Shown one piece after another: positions 4,092-60,513 of a stretch of 64,000 bases of DNA (position 1 is its first letter; each line of letters begins with the position of its first letter). Below the pieces are notes generated by a model. That model did not search any database, was not told the DNA's origin, and saw only the letters and a program-made list of their open reading frames with translations. Source of the DNA: Bacteroidota bacterium. GTDB taxonomy: Bacteria > Bacteroidota > Bacteroidia > UKL13-3. The translations under genes and the position numbers were made by a program. The stretch lies in contig JAUXUD010000014.1 of assembly GCA_030680835.1 (NCBI GenBank), positions 18,965 to 82,964 on the forward strand, written 5' to 3'.

Positions 4092-4104
4092 TTATAAATA
4101 ATAA

Positions 4105-6008: not shown

Positions 6009-6023
6009 AATAATTATTATAAA

Positions 6024-7040
6024 ATGAATGTTGTTATATTAGGATCTGGCAGAATGGGCATCAGACATGCGCAAGGTATTTGCGATATACCTCAATTAAA
6101 CTCACTTTTTTTGGTAGATAAATTTGAAGACGCCCTAACTAATGCAAAGGAATCATTAAAAAACCAGACCGAATTTTCAAAAATAAGTTTCGTATTACTT
6201 GAAGATTTTATCCATTCAGGTGAAAAATTTGATATTGGAATTCTTGCAGCAACATCGCAGAACAGACTGGGAAATTGTCGCCTGCTTGTCAATAAAGGTG
6301 TAAAACACATTCTGGTTGAAAAACCTCTTGGACAAAGCATTTCAGAAGTAATCGAGCTTATCACATTTTTTGATCAAAATCCGGATATTAAAGGGTATGT
6401 TAATCTAAACATGCGATTGTATGAATCTTTCAAAGAATTGAAAAACGACCTTCAAACATTAACTCAATTTAAAGGAGAAAAAAATATTACAGTCAATACA
6501 GGGACGCTTGGTATTGGTGCCAATGGAATCCATTACCTGGATTTGTTATTCTTTTTATTCGATGCCGATGATGCAGAAATACAGTCATGTGAAATAGACC
6601 CTCAAACCATACCAAGTGGCCGTGGTCTTGAGTTTGCCGATTTTGGAGGATGGGCAGTAATCAGATTCTTTAAAAACCAGGAAATACTGGGAAGAGCTTT
6701 AATTTCAATTTCTGCCCGTAGCACAGTTTTTGGCGGGTGGGATATTGTGGGTAGTCATGGAAGAATTTTACTGGACGAAATTCAACAAAAGCGCATTGAT
6801 ATTTTGCGTAAAGCTGATAGTTCAATGCCTATAAGCCGATACGCCGCAGATTACTTACAACCTCTTGAAAAAAAAATCGAGTCCCCGTTTCTTGGTGAAC
6901 TAACAAAAGTATGGTTAGAAAATTTAATAAAAGGGAATGCAGTTTTGCCAGAAATAAAAGAATCACAAAAGGTGCATAAACTAATATTCGAATGGCTTTC
7001 TGCATCAAAAATATATAAGGATTTATTCCCAATTACATAA
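6024..7040 (+). CDS. Gfo/Idh/MocA-like NAD(P)-dependent oxidoreductase
   Basis: The N-terminus has a Rossmann fold (VVILGSGRMG). The EKP motif is present (ILVEKPLG). Confidence 0.5.
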   Translation: MNVVILGSGRMGIRHAQGICDIPQLNSLFLVDKFEDALTNAKESLKNQTEFSKISFVLLEDFIHSGEKFDIGILAATSQNRLGNCRLLVNKGVKHILVEKPLGQSISEVIELITFFDQNPDIKGYVNLNMRLYESFKELKNDLQTLTQFKGEKNITVNTGTLGIGANGIHYLDLLFFLFDADDAEIQSCEIDPQTIPSGRGLEFADFGGWAVIRFFKNQEILGRALISISARSTVFGGWDIVGSHGRILLDEIQQKRIDILRKADSSMPISRYAADYLQPLEKKIESPFLGELTKVWLENLIKGNAVLPEIKESQKVHKLIFEWLSASKIYKDLFPIT

Positions 7041-7076
7041 GCAATATCAATAGATACCAGCAACACCAAGAATCAA

Positions 7077-7772
7077 TTGCAGACAATCAATTTCAATAAA
7101 TCTTTTATCAGATGGCGGTTAAAAAATGACTTGTACGGAAGATTTAATATTGAAGCCTGTTGCAGTGTGATAAACATAATAACTTCAACACAGATTGATT
7201 ATTATTTATTAAGTAGTGTTTTAGCTTGCAAGGTATTATCAGGAAAAGATATGTTACATGATCCCGAATACCTTTTTCAAGCCATATTTTCAGAAAGGGA
7301 CTTTAAAATATTCCGCATCAACAACGCTACCGGAGGCATACGGGATACAAACGGTCTGAATATAGAAAACTTCGAAGAAATAAAAGTTCATTTAACACAT
7401 ACTGATTCAAAAAAATTGAATACTCCAAAAGAAATTTATTTAGCAGTTTTTGATCAAAAATCTTTAAACGCTCAGGTATTTTTCAAAATTGGGGAAATAA
7501 AATACGAACTCAGGTTTCCGGTAAAACACATTAACGTACGTTCAACCGATGATAACTGGCAGGTGGAAACCGGACCTGTACTTATGCCTTTCCTGAATCA
7601 TAAATCAGAAGTAAACGCTAATCATTTCCTTCCGGCTTTTATTGCGTTGAATCACAATGGCATTTTTGACTATGCGACTTTTGAAGAAGAAAAGCTGCAC
7701 AATTACTCCACAAGATTTTATCATAAAAAGGAATCATTGAAAGTTGAATCTCAATTACAAATTATTGAATAA
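7077..7772 (+). CDS. hypothetical protein of unknown function. The start is uncertain: TTG at 7077, first ATG at 7251.
   Basis: Long ORF in the operon frame between two oxidoreductase genes. No motif recognised. Confidence 0.35.
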   Translation: MQTINFNKSFIRWRLKNDLYGRFNIEACCSVINIITSTQIDYYLLSSVLACKVLSGKDMLHDPEYLFQAIFSERDFKIFRINNATGGIRDTNGLNIENFEEIKVHLTHTDSKKLNTPKEIYLAVFDQKSLNAQVFFKIGEIKYELRFPVKHINVRSTDDNWQVETGPVLMPFLNHKSEVNANHFLPAFIALNHNGIFDYATFEEEKLHNYSTRFYHKKESLKVESQLQIIE

Positions 7773-7775
7773 ATT

Positions 7776-8714
7776 ATGATCTGGATTATTGGAACAGGAC
7801 TTATGAGCAGGGAATACGCTAAGGTTCTAAAAGCATTAAATAAGGAGTTCATTGCAATAGGAAAAGGAGAAGAAAATTGTGCTCTATTTGAAAAAGAATA
7901 TAGTGTAAAGACAATAAGAGGTGGACTCAATGATTTTCTAAAAACAAAACCTCCTATTCCGGAATCTGTAATTGTTGGAGTTGGAATTGAAGCACTCACT
8001 GAAACAACCATTGCTCTGTTAAATTACGGTATAGGAAAAATTCTTCTCGAAAAACCAGGAGTGGGGTATGCTTCGGAAATAACTGCTGTTTCAGAACTCG
8101 TAAAAGAGCAAAATGCTCACGTCTTACTTGCATATAACAGGAGATTTTACTCCTCTGTTATACAAGCACAAAAAATAATAAAAGATGATGGCGGAGTGGT
8201 TTCATTCAATTTTGAATTTACCGAATGGTCGCACTTAATACGAAACTTAAAGAAGCATAAAACAGAACATCACAATTGGTTCCTGGGAAACTCTACACAT
8301 GTTATTGATACTGCCTTCTATCTTGGTGGTAACCCTAAAGAATTATGTGCTTTTTTCAAAGGTGGTCTAGACTGGCATCCTGCTTCATCTGTTTTTGCAG
8401 GTGCAGGGGTGAGTGAAAACAATGCCTTATTTTCTTACCAGGCAAATTGGGAAGGTCCGGGGCGTTGGGTTATTGAATTGATTACACCCATTCACCGGCT
8501 TATTTTCAAACCTATGGAGACCCTTCAAATCCAAAATATAGGAAGTGTTGCAGTTGAGCCAGTATTAGTTGACGATCATTTAGATAAAGAATTCAAACCC
8601 GGTATCTATTTACAAACAGAAACTTTTATAAAAGGTGATTATTCGAGGTTCTGTTCTGTTCAGGATCAAAAAAATATGATTGAAAAATATTATAATAAAA
8701 TGAGTGGTTATTGA
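7776..8714 (+). CDS. Gfo/Idh/MocA-like oxidoreductase (second copy)
   Basis: N-terminus IIGTGLMSREYA and LLEKPG (EKP motif). Confidence 0.45.
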   Translation: MIWIIGTGLMSREYAKVLKALNKEFIAIGKGEENCALFEKEYSVKTIRGGLNDFLKTKPPIPESVIVGVGIEALTETTIALLNYGIGKILLEKPGVGYASEITAVSELVKEQNAHVLLAYNRRFYSSVIQAQKIIKDDGGVVSFNFEFTEWSHLIRNLKKHKTEHHNWFLGNSTHVIDTAFYLGGNPKELCAFFKGGLDWHPASSVFAGAGVSENNALFSYQANWEGPGRWVIELITPIHRLIFKPMETLQIQNIGSVAVEPVLVDDHLDKEFKPGIYLQTETFIKGDYSRFCSVQDQKNMIEKYYNKMSGY

Positions 8715-9580
8715 TAAAAAATATGAATAAAATAGAAGAATCGACTCAATGGGACCTCATTCTCACCCCGCAAAAGGGGTGGTTCAAACTTGATTTAGGG
8801 GCAATTTGGAGGTATCGGGACCTGCTGATGCTGCTTGTTCGACGAGATATAGTTGCTTTTTACAAGCAGACCATCTTTGGTCCGCTCTGGTATTTTATCC
8901 AGCCGGTATTCACCACCATTGTATTTACTTTTATATTTGGTAAATTAGCTAAACTTTCTACCGATGGACTCCCTCAATCTGTGTTTTATCTCGTTGGAAT
9001 TACTGCATGGAACTATTTTTCAGACTGCTTAATAAAAACATCTACCGTCTTCAGGGATAATCAGGCAATATTCGGTAAGGTTTATTTTCCAAGGATAATA
9101 AGTCCGTTAAGTATTGTTGTTTCCAATCTGCTGAGGTTTGCAATTCAACTTGTCCTTTTGTTAGGTTTAATAATCTATTTTTATTTTCAGGGAGTCATAT
9201 TTCCCATAGGCTGGAATATCTTCTTGTTTCCTGTATTTATTTTGTTTATGGCTATGCAGGGGCTCGGCCTTGGAATGATGGTTACTGCCATGACAAATAA
9301 ATACAAGGACCTATCCATTCTTGTTCCATTTGGTATGCAACTTTTGATGTATGCCACAACAGTTATTTATCCACTTTCCAGTCTCAGTGGAAATATGTAC
9401 CGCATCGTTGCGCTTAATCCCATGACTTATGTCATTGAAGGCATAAAAGCCAGTACGCTTGGTGTTGGCGTACTCACCTTCCAAACTTTTACCTATTCAT
9501 TTCTTGTCTCCGTATTCATCCTTAGCATCGGATATATTATATTTAATAAAGCGGAAAAATCATTTATTGATACCATTTAG
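8711..9580 (+). CDS. wzm: ABC-2 type polysaccharide export permease (Wzm/KpsM/TagG family)
   Basis: Conserved RDIVAFYKQTIFGPLWYFIQP N-terminal motif. The rest is multi-TM hydrophobic. Confidence 0.8.
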   Translation: MIKNMNKIEESTQWDLILTPQKGWFKLDLGAIWRYRDLLMLLVRRDIVAFYKQTIFGPLWYFIQPVFTTIVFTFIFGKLAKLSTDGLPQSVFYLVGITAWNYFSDCLIKTSTVFRDNQAIFGKVYFPRIISPLSIVVSNLLRFAIQLVLLLGLIIYFYFQGVIFPIGWNIFLFPVFILFMAMQGLGLGMMVTAMTNKYKDLSILVPFGMQLLMYATTVIYPLSSLSGNMYRIVALNPMTYVIEGIKASTLGVGVLTFQTFTYSFLVSVFILSIGYIIFNKAEKSFIDTI

Positions 9581-9664
9581 GCAGATGCCCAGTCATCACT
9601 TATGAAGTGGTAGCATTATATTCTTTCTGAGCAATAACTATAATAACCTACAAAAAAAAACTAA

Positions 9665-10957
9665 ATGATCGCAATAAAAGTTGAAAATCTTACCAAAGCA
9701 TATCAGATAGGCCAGTTCACTACCGGCACCTTGTCACGCGATATTGAGCGCTGGTGGGCATTGGCTCGTGGCAAGGAGGATCCGTTCCTGACAATCGGGG
9801 AAACCAATGACCGCTCTAAAAAAGGGAAAAGTGATATCGTCTGGAGCCTGAAAGATCTTAATTTTGAAATCGAACACGGCGAAGCCATTGGCATAATAGG
9901 CAAGAATGGTGCAGGAAAAAGCACCTTGTTGAAAATCTTAAGTCAGGTAACCATGCCAACCGCCGGTACAGTTAAATTGAAAGGCAGGGTAGCGAGTTTA
10001 TTGGAGGTAGGCACCGGCTTTCATCCGGAACTTACGGGCAGGGAAAATATATTCCTGAACGGTGCCATTATGGGGATGCGCAAAAGTGAAATCAAACTCA
10101 AGTTCGATGAAATCGTAGATTTTTCAGGAGTGGATAGGTATATTGATACTCCTGTTAAGAGATATTCATCAGGTATGTATGTAAGGCTCGCCTTTGCTGT
10201 TGCCGCTTATTTAGAAAGTGAAATACTCGTAGTTGATGAAGTACTTGCAGTGGGGGATTATGAATTTCAAAAGAAATGTCTGAGTAAAATGGGGGATTTG
10301 TCCAAAGGAGAGGGCAGAACAATTTTGTTCGTAAGTCATAACTTGCAGAGTATATCCAGTCTCTGTACAAAAGCTATCGTGCTTGTAAATGGTGAAATAA
10401 AATGCAATACCAATGTAACCGAAGCTATCGATTTTTATCAGAAAAGTATTATAAGCGGTAACAATACAATTGAACAAAGCAGAATTGGTGGCAGTGGTCA
10501 GGTCAGAATACAATCAATCAAGATTAAAGACAATCAGGGTATTATTTATTATAATCAGGAAATATGCTTCGAGTTTGAGCTTATTTCAAATTCAAATGAA
10601 ACTATTAATAATATATCATTATGGTTTGGTTTCTCTGATCTGAAAAATAATACAGTAATAAATTCATTCAGTAAAGAAAAAGTTGAAATACTCCCCTTTG
10701 CGACAGCTATATTATTTGTGACATTACCTCCTAACAGGAATTTGATGCCAGGCGAGTATCAGGTAGGATTTAACCTGGCAAAAAATGTTTCAGGTGTTAA
10801 TTACGAGCCACTGGATATGGTTGTTGGTTATCCTGTGTTTAGAGTAATTATTGGTCAGGATACCGGCGATAATCCTGTATCAATGGTTTCTTATTGGCCA
10901 CAAGGTTGGGGCTCGATTGCATACGAAAACAATATTAGAATTGAAAATAAATTATGA
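9665..10957 (+). CDS. wzt: ABC transporter ATP-binding protein Wzt with a C-terminal extension (a putative polysaccharide-terminus binding domain)
   Basis: Walker A GKNGAGKST, signature YSSGM, Walker B ILVVDE. About 180 extra C-terminal residues follow the NBD. Confidence 0.85.
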   Translation: MIAIKVENLTKAYQIGQFTTGTLSRDIERWWALARGKEDPFLTIGETNDRSKKGKSDIVWSLKDLNFEIEHGEAIGIIGKNGAGKSTLLKILSQVTMPTAGTVKLKGRVASLLEVGTGFHPELTGRENIFLNGAIMGMRKSEIKLKFDEIVDFSGVDRYIDTPVKRYSSGMYVRLAFAVAAYLESEILVVDEVLAVGDYEFQKKCLSKMGDLSKGEGRTILFVSHNLQSISSLCTKAIVLVNGEIKCNTNVTEAIDFYQKSIISGNNTIEQSRIGGSGQVRIQSIKIKDNQGIIYYNQEICFEFELISNSNETINNISLWFGFSDLKNNTVINSFSKEKVEILPFATAILFVTLPPNRNLMPGEYQVGFNLAKNVSGVNYEPLDMVVGYPVFRVIIGQDTGDNPVSMVSYWPQGWGSIAYENNIRIENKL

Positions 10958-11730
10958 AAGTAGTAATACTTGCAGGAGGACTCGGAACCCGTATTTCAGA
11001 AGAATCCCATCTAAAACCAAAACCCATGGTTGAAATTGGCGATAAGCCAATACTTTGGCATATCATGAAAAATTTTTCAAGCCAGGGTTTTAACGATTTT
11101 ATTATTTGCCTTGGTTATAAAGGCTATATTATAAAAGAATATTTTTCCAATTATTTTTTGCATAATTCAGACATTACAATTGAAGTAAAAGATAACAATA
11201 TTAAAGTACATAATTCGAATGCAGAAGACTTTATAGTAACTTTAGTTGAAACAGGTTTACACACAAAAACCGCCGGACGCTTAAAAAGAATTCAAACGTA
11301 CGTCAAGGATGAAGAGTTTATACTAACCTATGGTGATGGCGTTTGCGATATTGACCTTCAAAAATTAATCAATTTCCACAAGGGGCATAGCCAGGTGGCT
11401 ACTGTCACAGCTATTCAGCCTGTTGGAAGGTATGGCGTGATGCAAATAAATTCCGATAATTCAGTTGGGGTTTTCATGGAAAAAATGAAGGGAGATGAAG
11501 GTTGGATAAATGGCGGTTATTTTATTTTACGGCCTCAGGTTTTTGACTATTTGCCGCCGGATGCCGACAATGTGATGTGGGAAGAGTCCCCGATGCAGAA
11601 GTTAGCAAAAAATAATCAATTAATGGCTTACCAGCATGAAGGATTTTGGAAATGTATGGATGCTATTCGCGATAAGATTGAGCTTGAAGAAATCTGGAAT
11701 TCAGGAAATGCTAAATGGAAAATCTGGTAA
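10954..11730 (+). CDS. rfbF: glucose-1-phosphate cytidylyltransferase (RfbF/DdhA)
   Basis: The N-terminus is MKVVILAGGLGTRISEES...KPMVEIG. The length (258 aa) is typical. Confidence 0.85.
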   Translation: MKVVILAGGLGTRISEESHLKPKPMVEIGDKPILWHIMKNFSSQGFNDFIICLGYKGYIIKEYFSNYFLHNSDITIEVKDNNIKVHNSNAEDFIVTLVETGLHTKTAGRLKRIQTYVKDEEFILTYGDGVCDIDLQKLINFHKGHSQVATVTAIQPVGRYGVMQINSDNSVGVFMEKMKGDEGWINGGYFILRPQVFDYLPPDADNVMWEESPMQKLAKNNQLMAYQHEGFWKCMDAIRDKIELEEIWNSGNAKWKIW

Positions 11731-11746: not shown

Positions 11747-12760
11747 ATGAGAGTATTTGTAACGGGTCATCAGGGATTTATAGGCCCACATTTAATTGAA
11801 ATATTAAAGTCCAAAGGGCATTTTGTAACCGGATGCGATATTAATTTATTTGGCGATTGCAAAATTTCTGAAGTTGTTAAACCTGATATTGAACTTGAAA
11901 AAGACATAAGGAATGTAACAGTTGAAGATTTATATGGCTATGATTGTGTTATGCACCTCGCTGCCATTTCGAACGATCCAATGGGAAATTTTGATCCTGA
12001 ATTAACATACAGCATCAATAAAGAAGGTTCAATAAATATAGGTGCACTGGCAAAAAAAGCCGGTGTAAAAAAGTTTTTATTTTCAAGTAGTTGTTCTATT
12101 TATGGAAAGGGTGAAAGTTTGGATTTAGATGAAAACGCTTCATTTAACCCACTTACCGCTTATGCCATTTCAAAAATAGAAACCGAGAAAGCGGTTAGTA
12201 ACATGGCAGATGAAAATTTCTGTCCGGTTTTTTTACGTAACTCGACCGCTTATGGTTATTCACCAATGTTTAGGATAGATTTAGTAGTAAATAATTTTTT
12301 AGCTTGTGCGGTTGCAAAAGGTGACATTAAAATTATGAGTGATGGTGAACCCTGGCGGCCTTTAGTGCACTGTAGGGATATTGCCAGGGCCTTTGTTGCC
12401 GTTGCAGAAGCTCCTACTGAAACCGTGTTTAACAAAGCCATTAATATTGGCGGAAACAAAGAGAATTACCAGGTAAAAGAAGTAGCTAAATTTGTACAGG
12501 ATTTAATGCCTGAAGCGAATATTGTTTTCACCGGGGAAGTCGGAAACGACCCAAGGGATTACCGTGTGAATTTTGATTTGTTATATAAACTTTTGCCCGG
12601 TTTTGAACTGGAATACACACTTAAAAAAGGAATGAGTGAGTTGTATGGGTATTTGAAAAAATCAAATTTTTCAGCTAAGGATTTTGATGGTGACAGATTT
12701 GTAAGAATGAAATTGTTGAAAAATAATCTTCATAAAATAACAACACCTGATGAAGTTTAA
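11747..12760 (+). CDS. NAD-dependent epimerase/dehydratase (extended SDR) in the CDP-sugar module
   Basis: N-terminus MRVFVTGHQGFIGPHL and the catalytic YAISK (YxxxK). The start is set at the ATG at 11747. The track start at 11636 overlaps upstream. Confidence 0.7.
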   Translation: MRVFVTGHQGFIGPHLIEILKSKGHFVTGCDINLFGDCKISEVVKPDIELEKDIRNVTVEDLYGYDCVMHLAAISNDPMGNFDPELTYSINKEGSINIGALAKKAGVKKFLFSSSCSIYGKGESLDLDENASFNPLTAYAISKIETEKAVSNMADENFCPVFLRNSTAYGYSPMFRIDLVVNNFLACAVAKGDIKIMSDGEPWRPLVHCRDIARAFVAVAEAPTETVFNKAINIGGNKENYQVKEVAKFVQDLMPEANIVFTGEVGNDPRDYRVNFDLLYKLLPGFELEYTLKKGMSELYGYLKKSNFSAKDFDGDRFVRMKLLKNNLHKITTPDEV

Positions 12761-13295
12761 ACCAACGAATTTTGAAGGTTTAATTCTTGTAGAATCGGAG
12801 CCAAAAGGTGACGAAAGAGGATGGTTTGCAAGAACATTTTGCAAGGAAGAGTTTAAGCAAATAGGCCATACCGAGGAATGGTTGCAAACCAATCATTCTT
12901 ATACGCAACATAGCGGGACCATAAGAGGTATTCACTATCAACTTCCTCCATATCAGGAAATAAAGTTGGTTCGGTGTATTGCAGGTTCCGTATTCGATGT
13001 GGTGGTGGATATCAGGAAAAATTCATCCACCTTTTTACAGTGGTTTAGTATTGAACTTTCGGCAACCAATAAAAAAGCGATATATATACCCAAAGGCTTT
13101 GCACATGGTTTTCAAACCCTAAGCAATGATTGTGAACTTATTTATTATCATACACAATTTTATACGCCAAACAGCGAAGCTGCGATAAGGTATAACGATG
13201 AAATGATAAATATAAAATGGCCCTTACTTGTGACCGATATGTCGGATAAAGATAAAAGCCATCCACTACTCACAAAAGATTATAAAGGAATATAA
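12750..13295 (+). CDS. RmlC-like cupin NDP-4-keto-6-deoxyhexose 3,5-epimerase family
   Basis: 181 aa. ERGWFARTF...IRGIHYQ is typical of the dTDP-4-dehydrorhamnose 3,5-epimerase fold. Confidence 0.65.
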   Translation: MKFKPTNFEGLILVESEPKGDERGWFARTFCKEEFKQIGHTEEWLQTNHSYTQHSGTIRGIHYQLPPYQEIKLVRCIAGSVFDVVVDIRKNSSTFLQWFSIELSATNKKAIYIPKGFAHGFQTLSNDCELIYYHTQFYTPNSEAAIRYNDEMINIKWPLLVTDMSDKDKSHPLLTKDYKGI

Positions 13296-13297: not shown

Positions 13298-15634
13298 ATG
13301 CAATGCAGATTTTGTAAAACTGAATTAGTACATGAGTTTATTGACCTGGTTAATTGTCCTGCAAGCAATAGCTTTCTTACCATAGAACAACTTAGCGAAC
13401 CTGAAGTTTTTTACCCCTTAAAAGTTTATACTTGTCACAAATGTTTTTTGGTGCAGGTAGATGAGTACAAAAAATCGGATGCTATTTTTAGCAGCGATTA
13501 CGTTTATTTTTCTTCATTCTCTACTACCTGGCTGCAACACAGCAAAGCTTACGTTGAAAAAATGATTCAACGTTTTGACTTTGATCAAAATTCATTCGTG
13601 ATGGAGATCGCCAGTAATGACGGATATTTGCTGCAATATTTTAAAGAAAAAGGAGTGCCAGTTTTAGGGATTGAACCAACTATAAATACTGCTAACGCTG
13701 CCAGGGAAAAAGGTATTGAAAGTGTAAATGAATTTTTCGGAACAGCGCTAGCAACCAGCTTAGCCCAACAAAAAAAGCCGGATCTTTTATTGGGAAATAA
13801 TGTCCTCGCTCATGTGCCGGATATTGTAGATTTTGTTGCCGGAATGAAAATTGTATTGGCTGATAAAGGTGTGATAACTATGGAGTTCCCGCACCTATTG
13901 CAATTGGTTGACAATAACCAGTTCGACACCATTTATCACGAGCATTTTTCTTACTTATCTTTCTTCACGGTAAAACAGATTTTTGAATCCCGCGGACTTG
14001 AAATGTTTGATGTGGAAGAGATTCCCACACATGGTGGTTCTCTTCGTATTTATGCCAAACATAAAGGTGATTCATCCAAACCCATATCTGCAAATGTTCA
14101 ACAATTAATCAATAAGGAAATAAGTTCCGGTATTAATAATATCGAATATTATAACGGTTTCTTTAAAAGGGCTCAAACTGTTAAAATAGATTTATTGAAT
14201 TTTTTGATTAAACAGAAAAACGAAGGGAAAACTGTCGCTGCATATGGAGCTGCTGCCAAAGGTAACACGCTGTTGAACTTTTGTGGAATTAAAAATGATT
14301 TGATCAGTTTTGTTGTGGATGCGAATCCTGCCAAACAAAACAAATTCTTACCCGGTAGCCATATTCCGGTGATGAATGAGGCATACTTGAAGAATACAAA
14401 ACCTGCTTATGTTATCATCTTTCCCTGGAATCTTAAGGAAGAGATCGTGAAACAATTAGATTATATTAATGAATGGGAAGGGAAATTTGTCATACCCATT
14501 CCGAAATTAGAAATTATGAACACCGCAGTACAACAAAGGATCCCAATTTCAAAACCTTCTATTACCCAGTTAGAAATTAATTATGTGAATGATGCCATAA
14601 CTAATGGATGGGGATCCCATTGTTATGATTATATCATTCGTTTTCAAAAATTATTCGCATCCTATTTGAAATCGGATTATGCCTTGGCTACTTCAAGTTG
14701 TACCGGGGCCATACATCTTGCTTTTCTTTCTATCGGGTTACAACCCGGAGACGAAGTGATATGTCCTGATATCACCTGGATAGCCTCAGTAGCCCCTATC
14801 ACTTATATCGGAGCAAAACCGGTATTTGTTGACGTTAAAAAAGACACCTGGTGTATTGATCCTGAAAAAATTGAACAGGCAATTACCTCCAGAACAAAAG
14901 CCATCATGCCTGTGCACCTATACGGAAATGTATGTGAAATGGATGAGATCATGGCAATTGCAAAAAAATATAATTTGTTTGTCATCGAAGACGCTGCGGA
15001 GGCTTTGGGCTCTGAATATAAGGGAAAGAAAGTTGGCAGCATCGGAGACTTTGGCGCATTTTCTTTTCACGGCACAAAAACGATGACTACAAGTGAAGGC
15101 GGGATGCTGGTGACAAACAATAAAACTTTGTTTGATGAAGCATTAATTTACAATGATCATGGCAGAGACCATCGGAATCCCAAAACATTCTGGATGGAGC
15201 GGATTGGCTATAAATATAAAATCTCAAACTTACAGGCTGCCTTAGGTTGTGCACAGGTTGAACGGCTTGAAGATTTAGTGAATAAAAAAAGGGAAATATT
15301 TAATAGCTACAAAACACTTTTAAATGGTTTGCCCGGTTTGAGCATGAATGCAGAACAGGAATATGTAAAAAACAGTTACTGGATGCCAACAATCATATTT
15401 GACGAACCGGTAAATTTTAACAGGGAAAATTTATTTGCACAAATGAAAGAACACAATATTGACAGCAGGCCTTTCTTTTACCCCTTATCCTTTCTGCCTA
15501 TGTTTGAAACAAAAAAAGAAAACACCGTGTCATATGGTATTTATGATAGAGGAATTAATCTTCCAAGCTATTATGACATTACTCAAAAAGAAATTGAAAA
15601 AGTGGTTAATGTTATTAAAAGTAAAGTAAAGTGA
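13298..15634 (+). CDS. bifunctional fusion protein: NDP-hexose C-methyltransferase (TylCIII/EvaC family) fused to a DegT/DnrJ/EryC1 PLP aminotransferase
   Basis: The N-terminus CRFCKTELVHEFIDLVNCPASNSF is the zinc-ribbon start of sugar C-methyltransferases. A SAM-methyltransferase core follows (about 410 aa). The C-terminal ~370 aa has the DegT PLP-lysine motif (FSFHGTKTMT). It is one uninterrupted 778-aa ORF. Confidence 0.7.
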   Translation: MQCRFCKTELVHEFIDLVNCPASNSFLTIEQLSEPEVFYPLKVYTCHKCFLVQVDEYKKSDAIFSSDYVYFSSFSTTWLQHSKAYVEKMIQRFDFDQNSFVMEIASNDGYLLQYFKEKGVPVLGIEPTINTANAAREKGIESVNEFFGTALATSLAQQKKPDLLLGNNVLAHVPDIVDFVAGMKIVLADKGVITMEFPHLLQLVDNNQFDTIYHEHFSYLSFFTVKQIFESRGLEMFDVEEIPTHGGSLRIYAKHKGDSSKPISANVQQLINKEISSGINNIEYYNGFFKRAQTVKIDLLNFLIKQKNEGKTVAAYGAAAKGNTLLNFCGIKNDLISFVVDANPAKQNKFLPGSHIPVMNEAYLKNTKPAYVIIFPWNLKEEIVKQLDYINEWEGKFVIPIPKLEIMNTAVQQRIPISKPSITQLEINYVNDAITNGWGSHCYDYIIRFQKLFASYLKSDYALATSSCTGAIHLAFLSIGLQPGDEVICPDITWIASVAPITYIGAKPVFVDVKKDTWCIDPEKIEQAITSRTKAIMPVHLYGNVCEMDEIMAIAKKYNLFVIEDAAEALGSEYKGKKVGSIGDFGAFSFHGTKTMTTSEGGMLVTNNKTLFDEALIYNDHGRDHRNPKTFWMERIGYKYKISNLQAALGCAQVERLEDLVNKKREIFNSYKTLLNGLPGLSMNAEQEYVKNSYWMPTIIFDEPVNFNRENLFAQMKEHNIDSRPFFYPLSFLPMFETKKENTVSYGIYDRGINLPSYYDITQKEIEKVVNVIKSKVK

Positions 15635-15662: not shown

Positions 15663-16304
15663 ATGCAAAATCATACCCTTATCAATAAAATCAAGTCTCA
15701 AAATATCGTTTATGATGTAATTCGAGATGACCAAACTGTTATCTCGCAACTATTACCAGTTAATTATAAAATAATCAACGATGACTTTTTAATTAACCAG
15801 CTTACAAAGTGGCGTAATGAATCAATGCGTTTTTTTAAATCCCAGTTTAAATCTACATCAGAAGGCACTAAAACCTGGCTCACAGAAAAAATAGTACCAG
15901 CTAACGATAGAATATTATTTTTAGTGTCCAGTAAAGGAAAGGTAGTTGGACATTTTGGATTATGTAATATAACAGATATTTCAGCAGAATTAGATAATGC
16001 AATACGTGGTGAAATTGGAGGGCCATCAGATTTATTTGCCTTTGTTGAAAAAACTTTATTGAATATATCGTTTACTGAATTAAACGTTGAACAGGTGGTT
16101 GCTAAGGTGTTTTCTAATAATATTTTTGCTTTGCAATTGCATAAGAATCTTGGTTTTCAAGAAAAAAACCGAGTACCACTAAAATTAATAATATCTGAAA
16201 ACAAAAAGGTTTATGAAGAATGTTTAAGAAAAGACGCTAATGTAAATTTTGATTATGCAGAATTAGTTATTAGCAAGTCTGATTATATGGAAATACATAA
16301 GTGA
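15663..16304 (+). CDS. GNAT-family N-acyltransferase (a putative amino-sugar N-acylase)
   Basis: GNAT core pattern (VVGHFGL...LHKNLGF). It is adjacent to the ACP, SDR and ligase genes. Confidence 0.5.
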   Translation: MQNHTLINKIKSQNIVYDVIRDDQTVISQLLPVNYKIINDDFLINQLTKWRNESMRFFKSQFKSTSEGTKTWLTEKIVPANDRILFLVSSKGKVVGHFGLCNITDISAELDNAIRGEIGGPSDLFAFVEKTLLNISFTELNVEQVVAKVFSNNIFALQLHKNLGFQEKNRVPLKLIISENKKVYEECLRKDANVNFDYAELVISKSDYMEIHK

Positions 16305-16354: not shown

Positions 16355-16699
16355 ATGAGTAGAAGACCTAAATTTATAAATAAAATGTTACAAAGAGAAA
16401 AAATAAAAGAAATAGTATTAAATACTATCAAGGAGTTTCAAGTTGAACTTGATGATGATAATTTTAATCTCAATGAAGGTGAAACAACACGCTTATTTGG
16501 AGGTGGAGCTTCGCTTGATTCTTTAAGCCTGGTAAGGTTGATTATACAAATTGAAGAAGCTATTGAAGAACATTTAAATATTTCAATTGTATTGGCAAGC
16601 GAACAAGCGATGTCTAGAAGGACTAGTCCTTTTTCACGAATTTCATATCTTATTGACTATATTTATGAGTTAGTTAATACTCAACAAAATGGAAAGTAA
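16355..16699 (+). CDS. acyl carrier protein-like
   Basis: GGGASLDSLSLVRL contains the DSL phosphopantetheine attachment motif. Confidence 0.6.
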   Translation: MSRRPKFINKMLQREKIKEIVLNTIKEFQVELDDDNFNLNEGETTRLFGGGASLDSLSLVRLIIQIEEAIEEHLNISIVLASEQAMSRRTSPFSRISYLIDYIYELVNTQQNGK

Positions 16700-17396
16700 T
16701 AAGGTAATTTTAATCACCGGGAGTCGTAAAGGAATAGGAAGAGGTCTTGCAGAATATTATTTAGAAAAAAAATATTTCGTTGTTGGCTGTAGTAGGCTTG
16801 CATCTGATTTATCTCATTCTAATTATCTTCATTTTACGCTTGATATTTCTGATGAACTTGCAGTAAAAAAGATGATGATATCTGTCAAAGACAAATTTGG
16901 AAAACTTGATATTTTAATTAATAATGCAGGAATTGCATCAATGAATCATGTATTACTTACACCTCTTTCAACAGTTATTAAGTTATTTGAAACTAATTTC
17001 TTAGGGACTTTTTTATGTAGCAGAGAAGCAGTAAAATTGATGCAAAAAAAGAAATTTGGCAGAATAGTCAATCTAACCAGTATAGCTGTCCCATTACAAT
17101 TGGAGGGTGAAGCTATTTATGCTTCATCAAAATCTGCAGTTGAGCAACTGACTAAAAATATGGCTAAAGAATTAGGAGTTTTTGGTATAACAATGAACGC
17201 AATTGGCCCAACACCTATTGAAACTGACTTAATTAAAGCCGTTCCAAAAAATAAGATTGAAGATTTATTAGATAAACAAACTATTAAAAGATATGGAAAC
17301 CTAAATGATATTATCAACATCGTAGAATTCTTTATTTCGCCAAATAGTTCATTTATCACCGGCCAAATTCTTTATCTTGGAGGAATTGTAAAATAA
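16689..17396 (+). CDS. SDR-family oxidoreductase (3-oxoacyl-ACP reductase FabG-like)
   Basis: TGSRKGIGRG (TGxxxGxG) and YASSKSAVEQL (YxxxK). Confidence 0.8.
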   Translation: MESNKVILITGSRKGIGRGLAEYYLEKKYFVVGCSRLASDLSHSNYLHFTLDISDELAVKKMMISVKDKFGKLDILINNAGIASMNHVLLTPLSTVIKLFETNFLGTFLCSREAVKLMQKKKFGRIVNLTSIAVPLQLEGEAIYASSKSAVEQLTKNMAKELGVFGITMNAIGPTPIETDLIKAVPKNKIEDLLDKQTIKRYGNLNDIINIVEFFISPNSSFITGQILYLGGIVK

Positions 17397-17403: not shown

Positions 17404-18765
17404 ATGTTTAATAATTTATTTGTAAATAAAATATTCTCATTTACCGACAATGTTGCAGTAATCATAAATGATATTTCATTTACATATGTTCATTTAAATG
17501 AATCAGTAAAAAAAGCTTGTAAATTTCTTATTGAGCAGAAAATTATTCCTGGAAAATCAGTGGTAATTAAAGCCGATTATAATTTTGAAAGTATCTCTCT
17601 TTTTTTAGCATTAATTGAAAATAGAAATATTATTATACCAATTACAACAAAAAACACTGTAGAATTTAATGATAGACTAAATGAAGCTAATTGTGATTTT
17701 ATTATTACCATTGTTAATGGAGAATTTGAAACCGAAATAATAAATAAAGACCAAGCAAACACTTCTCATTATCTTATTTCTGAAATAGTAGAAAAAGATG
17801 TATCTGGACTCATATTATTCAGTAGCGGAAGCACAGGTCGACCAAAAGCCATGATTCACAATCTGGATAATATCACCTCTACCTTCATGGATAAAAGAGG
17901 CAAACCTTTGATTTTTTTAGTTTTTCTAAGTTTCGATCATATAGGTGGTTTAAATACACTATTTAATTGTTTGGCCATGGGTGCAACCATTGTGATTCCT
18001 AATGAGCGTAAACCTGAAATAATATGCAATTTAATTCAAAAATATAAGATTTCCATTTTGCCATCAAGTCCAACTTTTTTGAATTTGTTGTTAATCAGTA
18101 AAGCTCATGAACACTACGATTTATCTAGCTTAAAAATGATTACCTATGGAACAGAGCCAATGCCAGAAAGTTTATTATTAAAATTAAGAACAGAATTACC
18201 TCATGTAAGATTTATGCAAACCTTTGGAACAAGCGAAACCGGAATAGTAAAAACACAAAGTAAGTCATCAAGTAGTTTATTTTTAAAATTTGAAGATCCT
18301 AACCAAGAACATAAAATTGTTGATGGAGAATTATGGTTAAGAAGCAAAACACAAATTTTAGGTTACTTAAATCATTCAAATGAAAGCTTTACTAAAGATG
18401 GATGGTTTAAAACTGGTGACATTGTAGAAGTGTTGGAAGATGGTTACTTAAAAATTATCGGAAGATCTAAAGAAATAATTAATATAGGAGGAGAAAAAGT
18501 ACTTCCCATGGAAGTAGAAAACCTTATTTTGCAAATAGACGGAGTCAACGATTGTGTTGTTTTCGGACAGCAAAATGCAATCATGGGCCAAATAGTTACT
18601 GCAAATATTAGCATAAACGAAAAATCTGATCCTGTTCAGATTAAGAAGGAAGTAATAAAACTTTGTAAGGAAAAACTTGATAATTATAAAATTCCTTCAA
18701 AGGTTAATATTGTTTCAATGATTGATTTTAATGACCGATTTAAAAAAGACAGAAAACTTCAATAA
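17404..18765 (+). CDS. AMP-dependent synthetase/ligase (acyl-ACP/acyl-CoA ligase-like)
   Basis: AMP-binding motif LFSSGSTGRPKA and a downstream GTSETG-like motif (FGTSETGI). Confidence 0.8.
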   Translation: MFNNLFVNKIFSFTDNVAVIINDISFTYVHLNESVKKACKFLIEQKIIPGKSVVIKADYNFESISLFLALIENRNIIIPITTKNTVEFNDRLNEANCDFIITIVNGEFETEIINKDQANTSHYLISEIVEKDVSGLILFSSGSTGRPKAMIHNLDNITSTFMDKRGKPLIFLVFLSFDHIGGLNTLFNCLAMGATIVIPNERKPEIICNLIQKYKISILPSSPTFLNLLLISKAHEHYDLSSLKMITYGTEPMPESLLLKLRTELPHVRFMQTFGTSETGIVKTQSKSSSSLFLKFEDPNQEHKIVDGELWLRSKTQILGYLNHSNESFTKDGWFKTGDIVEVLEDGYLKIIGRSKEIINIGGEKVLPMEVENLILQIDGVNDCVVFGQQNAIMGQIVTANISINEKSDPVQIKKEVIKLCKEKLDNYKIPSKVNIVSMIDFNDRFKKDRKLQ

Positions 18766-18843: not shown

Positions 18844-19578
18844 ATGGATCCAATTAACCAATTTAACGAAGAAAAAAAACAAAATATTGAAGCGCTTGGA
18901 AAAAATGAGGATCTAAATCAGTTAGGCCTTGATTTTTTGATTGACACGGCTAAAGACAAGTATACTTACAATTTTACCTGGATGGGGCGACCCATTATTG
19001 CTTTTCCACAAGATATGGTTGCAATGCAGGAAATTATTTGGGATGTAAAACCGGAGTTAATAATTGAAACTGGAGTTGCCCACGGTGGATCTATTGTATA
19101 CTATGCGTCTTTGCTTGAGCTTTTGGGCAATAATGGCCTCGTGGTGGGTATAGACATTGATATACGCGCACATAACAGGAAATTAATTGAAGAGCACCCC
19201 ATGAGCAAAAGGATCAAATTGGTGGAAGGTTCTTCTATTAGTGAAAAAGTGTTTGATGAGGTTAAAAATATTGCTAAAGGCAGGAATAAAATAATGATCT
19301 GCCTTGATAGCAATCATACGCACGAACATGTTTTGGAGGAATTAAAACTTTATGCCCCGCTAACATCTGTTGGCAGTTATTGCGTGGTGTTTGATACCGT
19401 AGTTGAAGATATGCCGGATAGTCATTTTGAAAACCGTCCGTGGGGGCATGGCAATAATCCCAAAACTGCTGTTTGGGAATTTCTTAAAACACATGAAGAG
19501 TTTGAAATCGACAAGGGTATTCAAGACAAGCTGCTGATTACCGTCGCGCCGGATGGTTATTTGAAGAGGATTAGGTAA
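18844..19578 (+). CDS. CmcI/cephalosporin-hydroxylase-family class I methyltransferase (sugar O-methyltransferase-like)
   Basis: WMGRPIIAFPQDM...IIETGVAHGGS is typical of the CmcI/rhamnosyl O-methyltransferase family. Confidence 0.65.
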   Translation: MDPINQFNEEKKQNIEALGKNEDLNQLGLDFLIDTAKDKYTYNFTWMGRPIIAFPQDMVAMQEIIWDVKPELIIETGVAHGGSIVYYASLLELLGNNGLVVGIDIDIRAHNRKLIEEHPMSKRIKLVEGSSISEKVFDEVKNIAKGRNKIMICLDSNHTHEHVLEELKLYAPLTSVGSYCVVFDTVVEDMPDSHFENRPWGHGNNPKTAVWEFLKTHEEFEIDKGIQDKLLITVAPDGYLKRIR

Positions 19579-21915: not shown

Positions 21916-23102
21916 ATATTTTAATTGGGAATACCCAGGAATTTAATCCTCAAATAGGTGGAGTGGAGATGGTTTCCTCCATCCTGGCTAAGGTATTTAC
22001 TGAAATGGGACACAAAGTTTTTTTTGTTGCCTGTCTCAAATCGCCTTATAGTAAGATGTATGTGCCGGCAGTTGAACAAACCCTATTACCGGATAAAACC
22101 TACGACTCTGTCATTAACAAACAAAAACTTCTTTCGGTTTGTGCAGATAAAAAAATTGAGATCATACTGAATCAGGCAGGAAATATTGCAGAATTTACAA
22201 GACTCTGCGCCTTTGTTTCAAAAGAACAGCAAATTCCATTGATTTCAGCAATTCACATAAACCCCTTAAATAAAATTTCGGCAATAAAGGATTATAAATT
22301 TTCTGCCATTAACAAATTTAGCTATCTAAAAGGATTTGGAAGAATGTTATTAATGCCGCTGAGATATAGACGTATTTATATGGAGGAACAGATATTATAT
22401 GGGGAAGTATGTTCAACAAGTGATAAAGTAGTTCTGTTATCAAAGGGTTATTTAAAAGAATTGGAATATCTAACAGGGAAAGGTTATTTAAAAAACGTAA
22501 TTGCGATAGCAAACCCAGTGAATTCTAAATTTCTCAACAAACCAATAATTAAAGAAAAAATTGTTTTGTTTGTTGGCCGGTTAGATTTTGATCATAAGAG
22601 ACCCGACCGGTTAATTTGCATCTGGGAGAGAATGTATAAAAATTATCCGGATTGGAAACTAAAATTTGCCGGCGATGGCCCATTCAAAAAACAATTGATG
22701 GATTATATTGTCAAAAAAGGAATTCGGAATGTTGAGTTTCTGGGTTTTTGTGACACCAGTAAACAATATCAGAACGCATCAATACTCTGTTTAACTTCCA
22801 CAATTGAAGGCTTGCCAATGGTATTGTTAGAAGGTATTAGTTATGGGTGCATCCCCCTTTCCTTCGATAGTTTTAATAGTGTTTTTGACGTTATTGAAAA
22901 CAATAAAAACGGCTTTATTATTCAATCATATCATTTAAAAAAATATGAAATAAAATTGCGATTACTGATGGACAATGAAGAACTGCGTGCAACAATGTGC
23001 CAAGAGTCAATTGAATCAAGCCATAAATTTGAACCTCATTCAATGGCTTCAGATTGGATCTCATTATTTACAGAAGCAATAAACACAAAGAAGCATGAAT
23101 AG
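21912..23102 (+). CDS. glycosyltransferase family 4 (GT-B, RfaG-like)
   Basis: C-terminal motif EGLPMVLLEGISYGCIPLSFD (E-x7-E). Confidence 0.7.
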   Translation: MNILIGNTQEFNPQIGGVEMVSSILAKVFTEMGHKVFFVACLKSPYSKMYVPAVEQTLLPDKTYDSVINKQKLLSVCADKKIEIILNQAGNIAEFTRLCAFVSKEQQIPLISAIHINPLNKISAIKDYKFSAINKFSYLKGFGRMLLMPLRYRRIYMEEQILYGEVCSTSDKVVLLSKGYLKELEYLTGKGYLKNVIAIANPVNSKFLNKPIIKEKIVLFVGRLDFDHKRPDRLICIWERMYKNYPDWKLKFAGDGPFKKQLMDYIVKKGIRNVEFLGFCDTSKQYQNASILCLTSTIEGLPMVLLEGISYGCIPLSFDSFNSVFDVIENNKNGFIIQSYHLKKYEIKLRLLMDNEELRATMCQESIESSHKFEPHSMASDWISLFTEAINTKKHE

Positions 23103-38487: not shown

Positions 38488-38488
38488 G

Positions 38489-38636: not shown

Positions 38637-38719
38637 ATTAGTTTCAGTGCCAACCACATGAATCACTTCACACCTATCCATACTTACTTTTGCCTTTTTA
38701 CTACTCACAAGAATCTAAA

Positions 38720-39245: not shown

Positions 39246-39250
39246 ATATT

Positions 39251-40369: not shown

Positions 40370-40370
40370 A

Positions 40371-60512: not shown

Positions 60513-60513
60513 A

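Follow-up and report, generated by a model that had tools for sequence, protein, structure and literature searches.

A CDP-sugar cassette with a fused C-methyltransferase and aminotransferase reading frame

The window, by which we mean the entire 64-kb stretch of DNA analysed here, derives from the metagenome-assembled genome of an uncultured member of the Bacteroidota. All of the features described below lie on the + strand. They begin with a polysaccharide export system, comprising a Wzm-type ABC-2 membrane permease (8711..9580; Pfam ABC2_membrane, E 5.9e-21) and a Wzt-type ABC ATPase with a C-terminal Wzt_C domain (9665..10957; Pfam ABC_tran 2.9e-22, Wzt_C 4.1e-08; MDP1725464.1). These are followed by a glucose-1-phosphate cytidylyltransferase of the RfbF type, the class that yields CDP-glucose (10954..11730; MDP1725465.1), which matches TIGR02623 at 393.6 bits against a cut-off of 300.25, with residues 1-258 spanning profile positions 1-255 of 255; by a non-canonical extended SDR (11747..12760; Pfam Epimerase 1.4e-44), for which the Logan gene call suggests 11708 as an alternative start; and by an RmlC-type NDP-4-keto-hexose 3,5-epimerase (12750..13295; Pfam dTDP_sugar_isom 3.6e-65; TIGR01221 187.3 bits, cut-off 155.75; MDP1725467.1).

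The next open reading frame (13298..15634) starts with ATG and encodes 778 amino acids. The initial annotation had described it as a single-polypeptide fusion of a sugar C-methyltransferase (C-MT) with a DegT-family aminotransferase, and this description was borne out, with the coordinates exact and both domains complete in Pfam searches. The C-MT part (aa 1-406; 13298..14515) consists of a four-Cys zinc domain, a SAM-binding domain and a C-terminal sugar-binding domain, and matches all three of the methyltransferase profiles that had been anticipated: Methyltransf_13 (aa 3-64; E 1.6e-19, 70.2 bits, cut-off 31.3), Methyltransf_23 (aa 87-236; E 1.1e-10, 41.9 bits, cut-off 27) and Methyltransf_14 (aa 243-402; E 3.5e-65, 219 bits, profile positions 1-160 of 160). 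The PLP-dependent aminotransferase part (aa 407-778; 14516..15634), for which amination at C-4 is predicted, likewise matches DegT_DnrJ_EryC1 (PF01041) at aa 421-773 (E 5.6e-119, 398 bits, profile positions 2-359 of 360).

The sequence motifs originally quoted were all recovered, with CRFCKTEL spanning aa 3-10, CPASNSF aa 20-26 and FHGTKT aa 590-595. A degenerate N-terminal domain without SAM-binding residues, named at the outset as an observation that would refute the fusion, was not what we found; the catalytic motifs are intact in both halves. In our alignment A1, the zinc-domain cysteines C3, C6, C46 and C49 are invariant, as are Y213, H214, E215 and H216. The SAM motif EIASNDG corresponds to EIGSNTG in MtmC; within the C-MT subfamily, its residues E103, A105, N107, D108 and G109 never vary, so that the glycine-to-alanine exchange is a family trait and not a sign of decay. 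In the DegT half, D565, H591 and K594 are invariant, and the Schiff-base Lys594 in SFHGTKT aligns with the lysine of 7b0m (FSFNGNK); in ColD/E1-type dehydratases, which share the DegT fold, a histidine occupies the position of this lysine. As judged from sequence, both halves therefore look like complete and catalytically intact domains.

The junction (14504..14527) reads AAA TTA GAA ATT ATG AAC ACC GCA (K L E I M N T A); it contains no stop codon and retains the former DegT start codon as Met407 (14516-14518), the read-through letters being GAAATTATGAAC. No linker has been added, and the native termini, some 10-15 residues, are all that connects the two domains; in alignments, the C-MT ends within 1-2 residues of the C-termini of its solved homologues. 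An AlphaFold2 model built from a 10-sequence alignment (mean pLDDT 71, pTM 0.53) is confident for the C-MT domain only, with most of the DegT half and the junction below pLDDT 50 and no confident inter-domain arrangement.

Downstream of the fusion, we identified a GNAT N-acyltransferase (15663..16304; Pfam Acetyltransf_4 1.9e-09), which also shows a weak PseH-like match (TIGR03585 3e-09; 4xpk E 0.006); a probable acyl carrier protein (16355..16699), weakly indicated by the motif GGGASLDSLSLV and by a PP-binding match below cut-off (E 0.047, 14.4 bits); a FabG-like classical SDR of the 3-oxoacyl-ACP reductase type (16689..17396; Pfam adh_short 6.4e-44; NCBIfam FabG at about 159 bits, below cut-offs); and an AMP-forming acyl ligase of the acyl-CoA/acyl-ACP synthetase type (17404..18765; Pfam AMP-binding 3.5e-36, AMP-binding_C 5.4e-10). 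The last gene of the cassette encodes an enzyme of the CmcI/rhamnosyl-O-methyltransferase family (18844..19578; Pfam RMNT_CmcI 2e-95). Taken together, these five downstream genes, which the initial annotation had not listed, point to an N-acylated sugar that probably carries an O-methyl group as well.

Cassette comparison and the predicted sugar

Comparison of loci revealed a conserved gene order, in which the cytidylyltransferase, keto-generating SDR, RmlC-type epimerase and C-MT come first, followed by a reductase at some loci and by a DegT enzyme with an N-acyltransferase at others, with a CmcI-type methyltransferase last. In cassettes that are otherwise identical, the DegT enzyme and the N-acyltransferase stand in for the 285-aa SDR reductase otherwise encoded after the C-MT. 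This exchange indicates the order of the reactions, C-MT followed by DegT, and lends support to the proposal in the initial annotation of a C-methyl-branched amino sugar, while the proposed CDP linkage gains support from the cytidylyltransferase, which passes the TIGR02623 cut-off. In relatives, the GNAT slot is filled by an LbH, GNAT or ATP-grasp enzyme, and CmcI-type enzymes with 56-71% identity to that of the window occupy the same relative position at eight loci (L001, L002, L011, L046, L048, L077, L079 and L080). Furthermore, fusions among cassette enzymes occur in other lineages in varied combinations (RmlC::C-MT, SDR::C-MT, C-MT::SDR, CmcI::C-MT, GNAT::DegT and SDR::DegT), which argues for a functional linkage of all cassette members. 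A single pattern-limited scan found the cassette in about 55 species-level genomes. The earlier view that such sugars are very rare thus holds for chemically described glycans, in which methyl-branched amino sugars are very rare (PMC9912281), but not for the genes. Our literature search on the cassette, the fusion and the predicted sugar class found no study of the pathway and no biochemistry for any cassette member.

These data support a module that would make a CDP-linked hexose with a C-methyl group, a 4-acylamino group and probably an O-methyl group. In the proposed pathway, RfbF would form CDP-glucose, the SDR at 11747 would convert this to a CDP-4-keto-hexose, and the RmlC-type enzyme would epimerise beside the keto group, in a manner that fits an L-series sugar. 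The C-MT domain would then methylate a carbon alpha to the keto group, most likely C-3, after which the DegT domain would turn the C-4 keto group into an amine at the expense of glutamate. The GNAT, fed by the ligase, the ACP-like protein and the FabG-like reductase, probably acylates the new amino group at C-4, and the CmcI-type enzyme would add a methyl group, probably to oxygen. The predicted product, CDP-4-acylamino-4-deoxy(-6-deoxy?)-3-C-methyl-O-methyl-hexose, would be the 4-amino analogue of vinelose and would resemble an N-acyl form of kansosamine, a sugar that occurs in Mycobacterium kansasii (PMC4403928). It may be destined for a polysaccharide that the neighbouring Wzm/Wzt transporter exports.

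The second step is where the window departs from its relatives. All three genes originally listed upstream of the fusion, the cytidylyltransferase, the extended SDR and the RmlC-like epimerase, are present, with the one correction that the SDR is not recognisable as a CDP-glucose 4,6-dehydratase. Most relatives carry a canonical CDP-glucose 4,6-dehydratase in this slot, with 446-476 bits against TIGR02622, whereas the SDR of the window scores 25.1 bits (cut-off 278), which places it outside that family. It is GalE-like, with SSSCSIYG where canonical enzymes (L001, L003) have TTDKVY, and lacks the dehydratase Asp-Lys pair. No canonical CDP-glucose 4,6-dehydratase was detected elsewhere in the window, either with the RfbG proteins of relatives in tblastn or with NCBIfam models applied to the other SDRs, and the only further matches in this search were Gmd, FnlA and a WbpM-like enzyme. 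Because the enzyme in the keto-generating slot lacks these dehydratase residues, both the committed step at the start of the pathway and the loss of the 6-hydroxyl are uncertain, and the 'dideoxy' sugar of the initial annotation was not borne out.

The best solved relative of this SDR is 6vo6 (81 bits), which we take to be Cj1427. Enzymes of the Cj1427 type are NDP-sugar C4-dehydrogenases (PMC10680097). The same type of SDR is found in the same slot at two further loci, L016 and L021, which still keep the reductase that follows the C-MT; we therefore rejected the idea that the SDR at 11747 is the 4-ketoreductase of the pathway. We infer that it generates the 4-keto sugar.

As to the site of methylation, the C-MT has full-length matches to three solved enzymes, MtmC (4rv9, 254 bits), KijD1 (5t64, 248 bits) and TcaB9 (3ndi, 230 bits). 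Its segment FDTIYHEH, which contains the Tyr-x-Glu-His active-site motif, is identical to that of MtmC and presumably corresponds to Y222/E224/H225 of TcaB9. The place of the C-MT in the cassette, after the SDR and the RmlC-type enzyme and before the reductase or DegT enzyme, fits methylation of an NDP-4-keto-hexose. Since all three solved relatives are 3-C-methyltransferases, C-3 is the most likely target. C-5 is also alpha to the C-4 keto group, and the C-MT always adjoins an RmlC-type epimerase, to which it is sometimes fused (P0022, P0028), an arrangement that recalls noviose-type pathways, in which the C-5 methyltransferase NovU is paired with the RmlC-like NovW. A noviose-type reaction would yield a 5-C-methyl (gem-dimethyl) 4-amino sugar. 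Given that the full-length matches are 3-C-methyltransferases without exception, and that the CDP-linked branched sugar vinelose is also methylated at C-3, we regard methylation at C-5 as unlikely.

Amination, in turn, is predicted to occur at C-4. The best solved relatives of the DegT half are 7b0m (304 bits) and the GDP-perosamine synthases 3bn1 and 3dr4 (about 272 bits), and the NCBIfam LegC, PseC and WecE models match it over their full length. It scores below every equivalog cut-off (327 against 420 for LegC) and hence belongs to no named specificity group. Its nearest relatives among both solved structures and NCBIfam models are 4-aminotransferases, the solved ones being of the perosamine-synthase type; in addition, it occupies the slot of a putative 4-ketoreductase in related cassettes, and Pfam and NCBIfam profiles revealed no 3,4-ketoisomerase in the module.

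Origin and integrity of the fusion

In all nine species-representative genomes with the same gene pair, the C-MT and DegT enzymes are encoded by two ORFs, which lie 0-10 nt apart or overlap (as at L001, L002, L028, L035, L041, L046, L048 and L049). A stop codon is present at the junction site in each of the eight relatives that were aligned; at L002, for example, the sequence reads GAA ATA ATA TAG ATG AAT, giving E-I-I-stop-M-N as opposed to E-I-M-N in the window. The possibility, raised at the outset, that orthologues might always be split is thus nearly realised among close relatives, and is offset by a second assembly of the locus (see below) and by an older clade of fused proteins. This clade comprises nine clusters, P0001-P0009 (778-808 aa, with linkers of 0-25 aa), and a further representative, P0121, all of which sit in the same cassette as the fusion described here; one of the clusters, P0007, was read on 10 contigs. 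These examples indicate that a fusion of this type is viable. A candidate for the reverse order, P0186 (778 aa, with two matched stretches), was rejected as a DegT::C-MT fusion, since Pfam identifies it as a DegT-DegT tandem.

Neighbour-joining trees of each half place the fused database proteins in a clade of their own, whereas the window sequence nests among split or stand-alone Bacteroidota genes. In line with this, its C-MT is 70-75% identical to split C-MTs as compared with 49-54% to fused ones, and its DegT half is 60-64% identical to split DegT enzymes as compared with 48-53% to fused ones. Because the window falls outside the fused clade in the trees of both halves, the fusion appears to be an independent event.

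The initial annotation had suggested that the fused enzyme might channel the C-methylated 4-keto sugar, a labile intermediate, straight from the methyltransferase to the aminotransferase active site. Selection for such channelling would be compatible with the consecutive steps predicted for the two domains, with the maintenance of the older fused clade across divergent lineages and with the repeated fusion of cassette enzymes to one another. Against this, most lineages keep the C-MT and DegT genes separate, and the split state of all nine closest pairs implies that the fusion is dispensable for function. Among the best 150 matches from a search of 1.84 billion proteins, a single 50%-identity representative has this architecture. 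The linkers of the fused clade vary between 0 and 25 residues and so give no sign of a constrained geometry, and the structural model (pTM 0.53, junction pLDDT below 50) provides no confident arrangement of the domains. It is therefore doubtful that channelling drove the fusion. The simplest view is that two adjacent genes merged by accident and that the result is tolerated, or perhaps of slight benefit, without having been designed for channelling.

A second assembly bears on whether the read-through is real. Over 14.3 and 16.5 kb, two loci of Logan contig SRR13727518_15766, which was produced by a different pipeline, are exact substrings of the window, and the gene call there gives the same 778-aa product; this identical reading frame speaks against the frameshift or sequencing error that had been flagged as a possible cause of the fusion. 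We note that both assemblies may share reads, in which case a systematic read-level error would be common to both. The window contains no N bases, + strand ORFs of 100 aa or more cover 95% of it, and the genes adjoining the fused ORF match their profiles end to end. The NCBI annotation, by comparison, lists a 372-aa DegT protein (MDP1725468.1), with no protein for the C-MT part and no accession between the RmlC-type epimerase (MDP1725467.1) and this DegT, which fits a pipeline that treated the C-MT part as a defective gene.

It is conceivable that the read-through stems from an error in the reads or the consensus, or that it is a disabling mutation of very recent date. The locus would then function as two genes, or as a damaged C-MT gene and a DegT gene translated from its own Met407, as the NCBI annotation implies. 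The genome is metagenome-assembled, the NCBI record lists the DegT protein alone, the nine closest gene pairs all have a stop codon at the junction, and losing 2 nt from a TAATG-type overlap, or else 6 nt, would suffice to create the fusion. We consider this quite improbable, as the 16.5 kb that an independent assembler recovered are identical to the window, the change preserves the reading frame cleanly and leaves both domains at full length and all conserved catalytic residues intact, profile searches across the 64-kb window revealed no other broken gene, and natural fusions with an equally short junction are known, one of which (P0001) is also 778 aa long.

On balance, we favour the interpretation that ORF 13298-15634 is a genuine bifunctional gene that arose by loss of the stop codon between adjacent genes of a CDP-sugar cassette and that acts in the pathway proposed above, and we consider this reasonably likely. 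The fusion may have arisen by recent mutation in a single population and could even be slightly harmful, and it looks like a modest evolutionary variation on two enzyme families that are already well understood.

Discussion

The fusion leaves our understanding of the C-MT and DegT reactions unchanged. Nevertheless, a natural single polypeptide predicted to carry out two successive steps in the making of a branched amino sugar provides, alongside its split and independently fused relatives, a clean system for testing the kinetic benefit of enzyme fusions. The cassette is widespread in the Bacteroidota and in other phyla and is biochemically untouched, and its distribution implies that environmental surface glycans may contain methyl-branched sugars much more often than the few chemically described examples would suggest. 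Furthermore, the locus is a clear case of failed annotation: because the public record lacks the C-MT protein, a pathway reconstructed from that record would predict the wrong sugar.

The locus also brings to light a non-canonical SDR in the slot of the dehydratase. A more elaborate scenario, which we consider very unlikely, is that this GalE-like enzyme is a Cj1427-like C4-dehydrogenase, so that the sugar would keep its 6-hydroxyl and belong to an as yet undescribed class, the 4-acylamino-4-deoxy-3-C-methyl-hexoses; 2-oxoglutarate released by the fused DegT domain would re-oxidise the NADH bound to the dehydrogenase, closing a redox/transamination loop within one module, and the N-acyl, O-methyl sugar would form a chain-terminating cap read by a locus-specific Wzt C-terminal domain. 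The terminal-cap idea was unsupported: at E <= 1e-3, the Wzt C-terminal domain found no counterpart at other loci with the amino-sugar cassette, although their ATPase domains are 50-64% identical.

Among known systems, the C-MT half resembles TcaB9, KijD1 and MtmC of the TylCIII/EvaC family, which have the same three domains (four-Cys zinc, SAM-binding and Methyltransf_14 sugar domains). Those enzymes stand alone and act on dTDP-sugars in the secondary metabolism of actinomycete antibiotics, whereas the C-MT described here is fused to an aminotransferase, is encoded downstream of a CDP-glucose synthase in a Bacteroidota surface-polysaccharide cluster, and has E-I-A-S-N-D-G as SAM motif I in place of E-I-G-x-N-x-G. 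The DegT half shares its full-length fold and Schiff-base lysine with GDP-perosamine synthase (3bn1, 3dr4), PseC, LegC, WecE and ArnB, but differs from perosamine-type 4-aminotransferases in its fused N-terminus and in its predicted substrate, which would be CDP-linked and C-methylated. Like the C4-dehydrogenases of the Cj1427 type, with 6vo6 as its best solved match, the SDR of the window lacks the dehydratase acid/base pair; Cj1427-type enzymes, however, act on GDP-heptose, whereas the substrate here would be CDP-glucose, and the match amounts to just 81 bits.

The older fused proteins (P0001-P0009, P0121), all of them uncharacterised and carrying generic names such as 'perosamine synthetase', have the same domain order and cassette (RfbF, SDR, RmlC, fusion, N-acyltransferase, CmcI) as the window, and at one of their loci, L079, Wzt/Wzt_C lies directly upstream, as it does here. 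They differ in being 48-54% identical to the window in each half and in that most members have a linker of 10-25 residues, where the window has none.

Finally, the predicted sugar has two chemical counterparts. N-acyl-kansosamine, from the lipooligosaccharides of Mycobacterium kansasii, carries 3-C-methyl, 4-acylamino and O-methyl groups, and CDP-vinelose of Azotobacter vinelandii is a CDP-activated, 3-C-methyl, O-methyl sugar. By analogy of chemistry only, the sugar predicted for the window would share the 3-C-methyl, 4-acylamino and O-methyl groups with kansosamine, and CDP activation together with the 3-C-methyl and O-methyl groups with vinelose.

A methyltransferase and an aminotransferase in one reading frame

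The fused ORF runs from 13298 to 15634 on the + strand, with an ATG start and 778 codons for amino acids, where the initial annotation had placed it, and it contains all the motifs quoted there. A Pfam scan of this ORF identified two complete enzymes. The first, an NDP-hexose C-methyltransferase (C-MT; aa 1-406), matches Methyltransf_13 (aa 3-64), Methyltransf_23 (aa 87-236) and Methyltransf_14 (aa 243-402), while the second (aa 407-778; 14516-15634) matches DegT_DnrJ_EryC1 at aa 421-773 (E 5.6e-119, profile positions 2-359 of 360). The C-MT half aligns end-to-end with the solved sugar 3-C-methyltransferases MtmC (4rv9, 254 bits), KijD1 (5t64, 248) and TcaB9 (3ndi, 230), the alignments stopping 1-2 residues short of the C-termini of these proteins. 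The zinc-binding cysteines C3, C6, C46 and C49 are invariant across the fused homologues, and MtmC has the identical FDTIYHEH segment, the site of the Tyr-x-Glu-His active-site motif. SAM motif I reads EIASNDG, whereas actinomycete enzymes have EIGxNxG; since this form is invariant throughout the C-MT subfamily, it is characteristic of the family and no sign of decay. With cysteines, FDTIYHEH and SAM motif intact, the N-terminal domain is not degenerate, a concern raised at the outset. The DegT half has 7b0m as its closest solved structure (304 bits), followed by GDP-perosamine synthases (~272 bits), and because it keeps the Schiff-base lysine K594 it is predicted to be an aminotransferase, not a ColD/E1-type dehydratase.

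The junction and its public annotation

In a species-level scan (one genome per species) that returned 76 loci, C-MT was directly followed by DegT in nine, as separate ORFs in every case. The stop and start of such split pairs lie 0-10 nt apart or overlap. At the junction the window reads GAA ATT ATG AAC (E-I-M-N) vs GAA ATA ATA TAG ATG AAT (E-I-I-stop-M-N) at L002, a related locus in another genome; this comparison points to a clean stop-codon loss that kept the old DegT start (Met407) and added no linker. The sole spacer between the halves is thus the native tails of both proteins (~residues 403-420), and a structure model predicts disorder at residues 409-423.

We also considered an assembly artefact. 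The source genome is an NCBI MAG, in which the window lies on a 107-kb contig. A Logan contig from run SRR13727518, built with a different assembler, carries two loci (14.3 + 16.5 kb) that match the window exactly throughout, and the 778-aa product is called on it as well, although the same reads may underlie both assemblies. The window contains 0 N bases, long + strand ORFs cover 95% of it, and no other broken gene was seen; together with the exact match, these features argue against an artefact. As no stop codon separates the halves, translation that begins at 13298 necessarily yields the fused protein, with additional initiation at Met407 possible.

The 778-aa Logan product clusters with MDP1725468.1, a 372-aa ‘DegT family aminotransferase’ (372 = 778 - 406). 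Neighbouring accessions are consecutive (Wzt ending in 464, RfbF in 465, RmlC in 467, DegT in 468 and GNAT in 469), and the 406-aa C-MT sequence is absent from the protein collection searched. NCBI therefore places the DegT start at internal Met407 and offers no C-methyltransferase protein, so that both the fusion and the C-MT (13298-14515) are invisible among NCBI proteins, between MDP1725467.1 and MDP1725468.1, an error worth correcting.

Related fusions and the origin of the window's own

The C-MT::DegT fusion is rare but not unique. Nine fused database clusters (P0001-P0009; 778-808 aa, linkers of 0-25 residues) share ~50% identity with the window protein and lie within the same cassette (RfbF, SDR, RmlC, fusion, N-acyltransferase, CmcI); one of them, P0007, was read on 10 contigs. 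At L079, a locus of this fused group, Wzt/Wzt_C lies directly upstream, as in the window. When 1.84 billion 50%-identity representatives were searched exhaustively, 1 of the best 150 matches (P0121) had this architecture. The homologue search left out the cluster to which the query itself belongs (representative P0394, 372 aa), which should have matched 48% of the query at 100% identity, even though the collection contains the exact 778-aa sequence. A same-family C-methyltransferase also occurs fused behind DUF4910, DUF2172 and HTH_47 in P0160 (927 aa), an architecture unrelated to known sugar-pathway partners.

In neighbour-joining trees of each half, the database fusions form their own clade and the window falls among split or stand-alone Bacteroidota genes. 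Its position outside the fused clade in both trees argues for an independent and more recent fusion event. Most lineages with C-MT and DegT do without fusion, the sole observation that bears on whether the fused enzyme might channel its keto intermediate. Elsewhere the cassette has also produced RmlC::C-MT, C-MT::SDR, SDR::C-MT, CmcI::C-MT, GNAT::DegT and SDR::DegT, a Rosetta-stone pattern that places all these enzymes in one pathway and shows gene fusion to be habitual in this neighbourhood. Judging from sequence comparison, we infer that the window's fusion is real, arose independently by stop loss and joins two consecutive enzymes of a widespread CDP-sugar pathway, making it a naturally occurring system in which enzyme fusion can be tested.

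Glycan genes around the cassette

All family-matched ORFs >=100 aa in the window (1-64000) lie on the + strand, and cumulative GC skew rises steadily. Two stretches, the acyl module at 16-18 kb and 26-28 kb, have the lowest GC content (28-29%) and may represent imported DNA. A nonulosonic-acid gene set of legionaminic or pseudaminic type occupies 23-4773, comprising the end of NeuB, a NeuC-like 2-epimerase, an N-terminally extended NTP-transferase, a CMP-sugar synthetase (CTP_transf_3) and a HisF/HisH-like pair with a possible role in amidine formation. Four consecutive ORFs (413, 338, 231 and 312 aa; 4767-8714) separate the HisH-like gene from Wzm; each gave either a marginal GFO_IDH_MocA Rossmann match or no significant hit to any Pfam family. 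The Wzm/Wzt ABC exporter (8711-10957) shares one co-directional cluster with a weak Wzy_C-like membrane protein (25476-26747; 24 bits, below cut-off), which may mean two glycan pathways side by side, and a GT52 (sialyltransferase-family) glycosyltransferase lies at 23095-24144.

Three more DegT-family aminotransferases (35284-36414, 44025-45242 and 49265-50389) show 31-33% identity to the fused DegT over the aligned stretch; with four DegTs in 64 kb, the glycan cluster would encode at least four distinct amino-sugar pathways. An FnlA-like UDP-GlcNAc 4,6-dehydratase/5-epimerase (559 bits, cut-off 730), a WbcJ-like reductase and a 2-epimerase together (37456-42136) look like an L-FucNAc or L-QuiNAc-type pathway. 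They are followed by an initiating Bac_transf (45242-45829), Gmd (45953-47089; 595 bits) and a WbpM-like dehydratase (53711-55681). The glycan region ends at alternative complex III-like genes (56143-63224) for a multihaem cytochrome c and for a Mo/FeS subunit of 1023 aa that is 100% identical to MDP1725508.1.

Cassette order and the predicted sugar

The genes upstream of the fusion are as first described: a glucose-1-phosphate cytidylyltransferase (10954-11730) passing its equivalog cut-off (TIGR02623, 393.6 vs 300), an extended SDR, and an RmlC-type epimerase (12750-13295; TIGR01221, 187 vs cut-off 155.75). Across related loci, slots 1-4 hold RfbF, a keto-generating SDR, RmlC and C-MT. Slot 5 is a 285-aa SDR reductase in L003, L011, L016 and L021, and DegT plus an N-acyltransferase in L001, L002, L046, L048, the fused clade and the window; slot 6 is in many loci a CmcI-family methyltransferase (18844-19578 in the window). 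As DegT and acyltransferase take the place of the reductase, the most likely target of DegT is the C-4 keto group that the reductase would use, once C-methylation has occurred. This order agrees with the C-MT family mechanism, in which an adjacent keto group is needed for enolate formation.

Slot 2 in most relatives is a canonical CDP-glucose 4,6-dehydratase (TIGR02622, 446-476 bits). In the window, L016 and L021 it is a GalE-like SDR (25 bits on TIGR02622 in the window) reading SSSCSIYG where dehydratases read TTDKVY, and no canonical CDP-glucose dehydratase was found elsewhere in the 64-kb window. Such SDRs (window 11747-12760, L016:8446-9450, L021:8441-9439 and L036:8410-9453) share an SSSCS[IV]YG motif and the C-terminal extension NFSAxDFDGxRFVRxxLL. 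Since L016 and L021 keep a post-C-MT reductase, the GalE-like SDR would have the keto-generating role, not that of the reductase, its probable chemistry being that of a dehydratase or a C4-dehydrogenase. The closest solved relative of the window SDR is 6vo6 (81 bits), which we take to be Cj1427. Cj1427 is a C4-dehydrogenase using 2-oxoglutarate (PMC10680097).

The acyltransferase slot is expanded in the window to four genes, encoding a GNAT, an ACP-like ORF (DSL motif present; weak PP-binding match, E 0.047), a FabG-like reductase and an AMP-forming ligase, and this suggests an N-acyl group of greater complexity than acetyl. The module is predicted to make CDP-4-acylamino-4-deoxy-C-methyl-O-methyl-hexose, with methylation at C-3 or C-5, positions that sequence cannot tell apart. 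Cassette comparison thus bears out the CDP-linked, C-methyl and amino parts of the initial interpretation and leaves the 6-deoxy part without support, given the SDR's 25 bits on TIGR02622. The idea that the Wzt C-terminal domain reads the sugar as a terminal cap gained no support when tested.

Branched amino sugars had also been called very rare. This holds for described glycans, in which a recent review terms monosaccharides with a 3-C-methyl branch ‘quite uncommon’ (PMC9912281), and not for genomes: a single pattern-limited scan found the cassette in ~55 species-level genomes, mostly Bacteroidota, along with some MAGs bearing labels such as Sulfurospirillum, Sericytochromatia and Methylococcales. 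The rarity is one of chemical description, and the fusion draws attention to a sugar pathway that has gone unstudied and to an unusual SDR. In its chemistry the predicted product resembles a 4-amino analogue of CDP-vinelose, and also N-acyl-kansosamine, a sugar of Mycobacterium kansasii lipooligosaccharides (PMC4403928).
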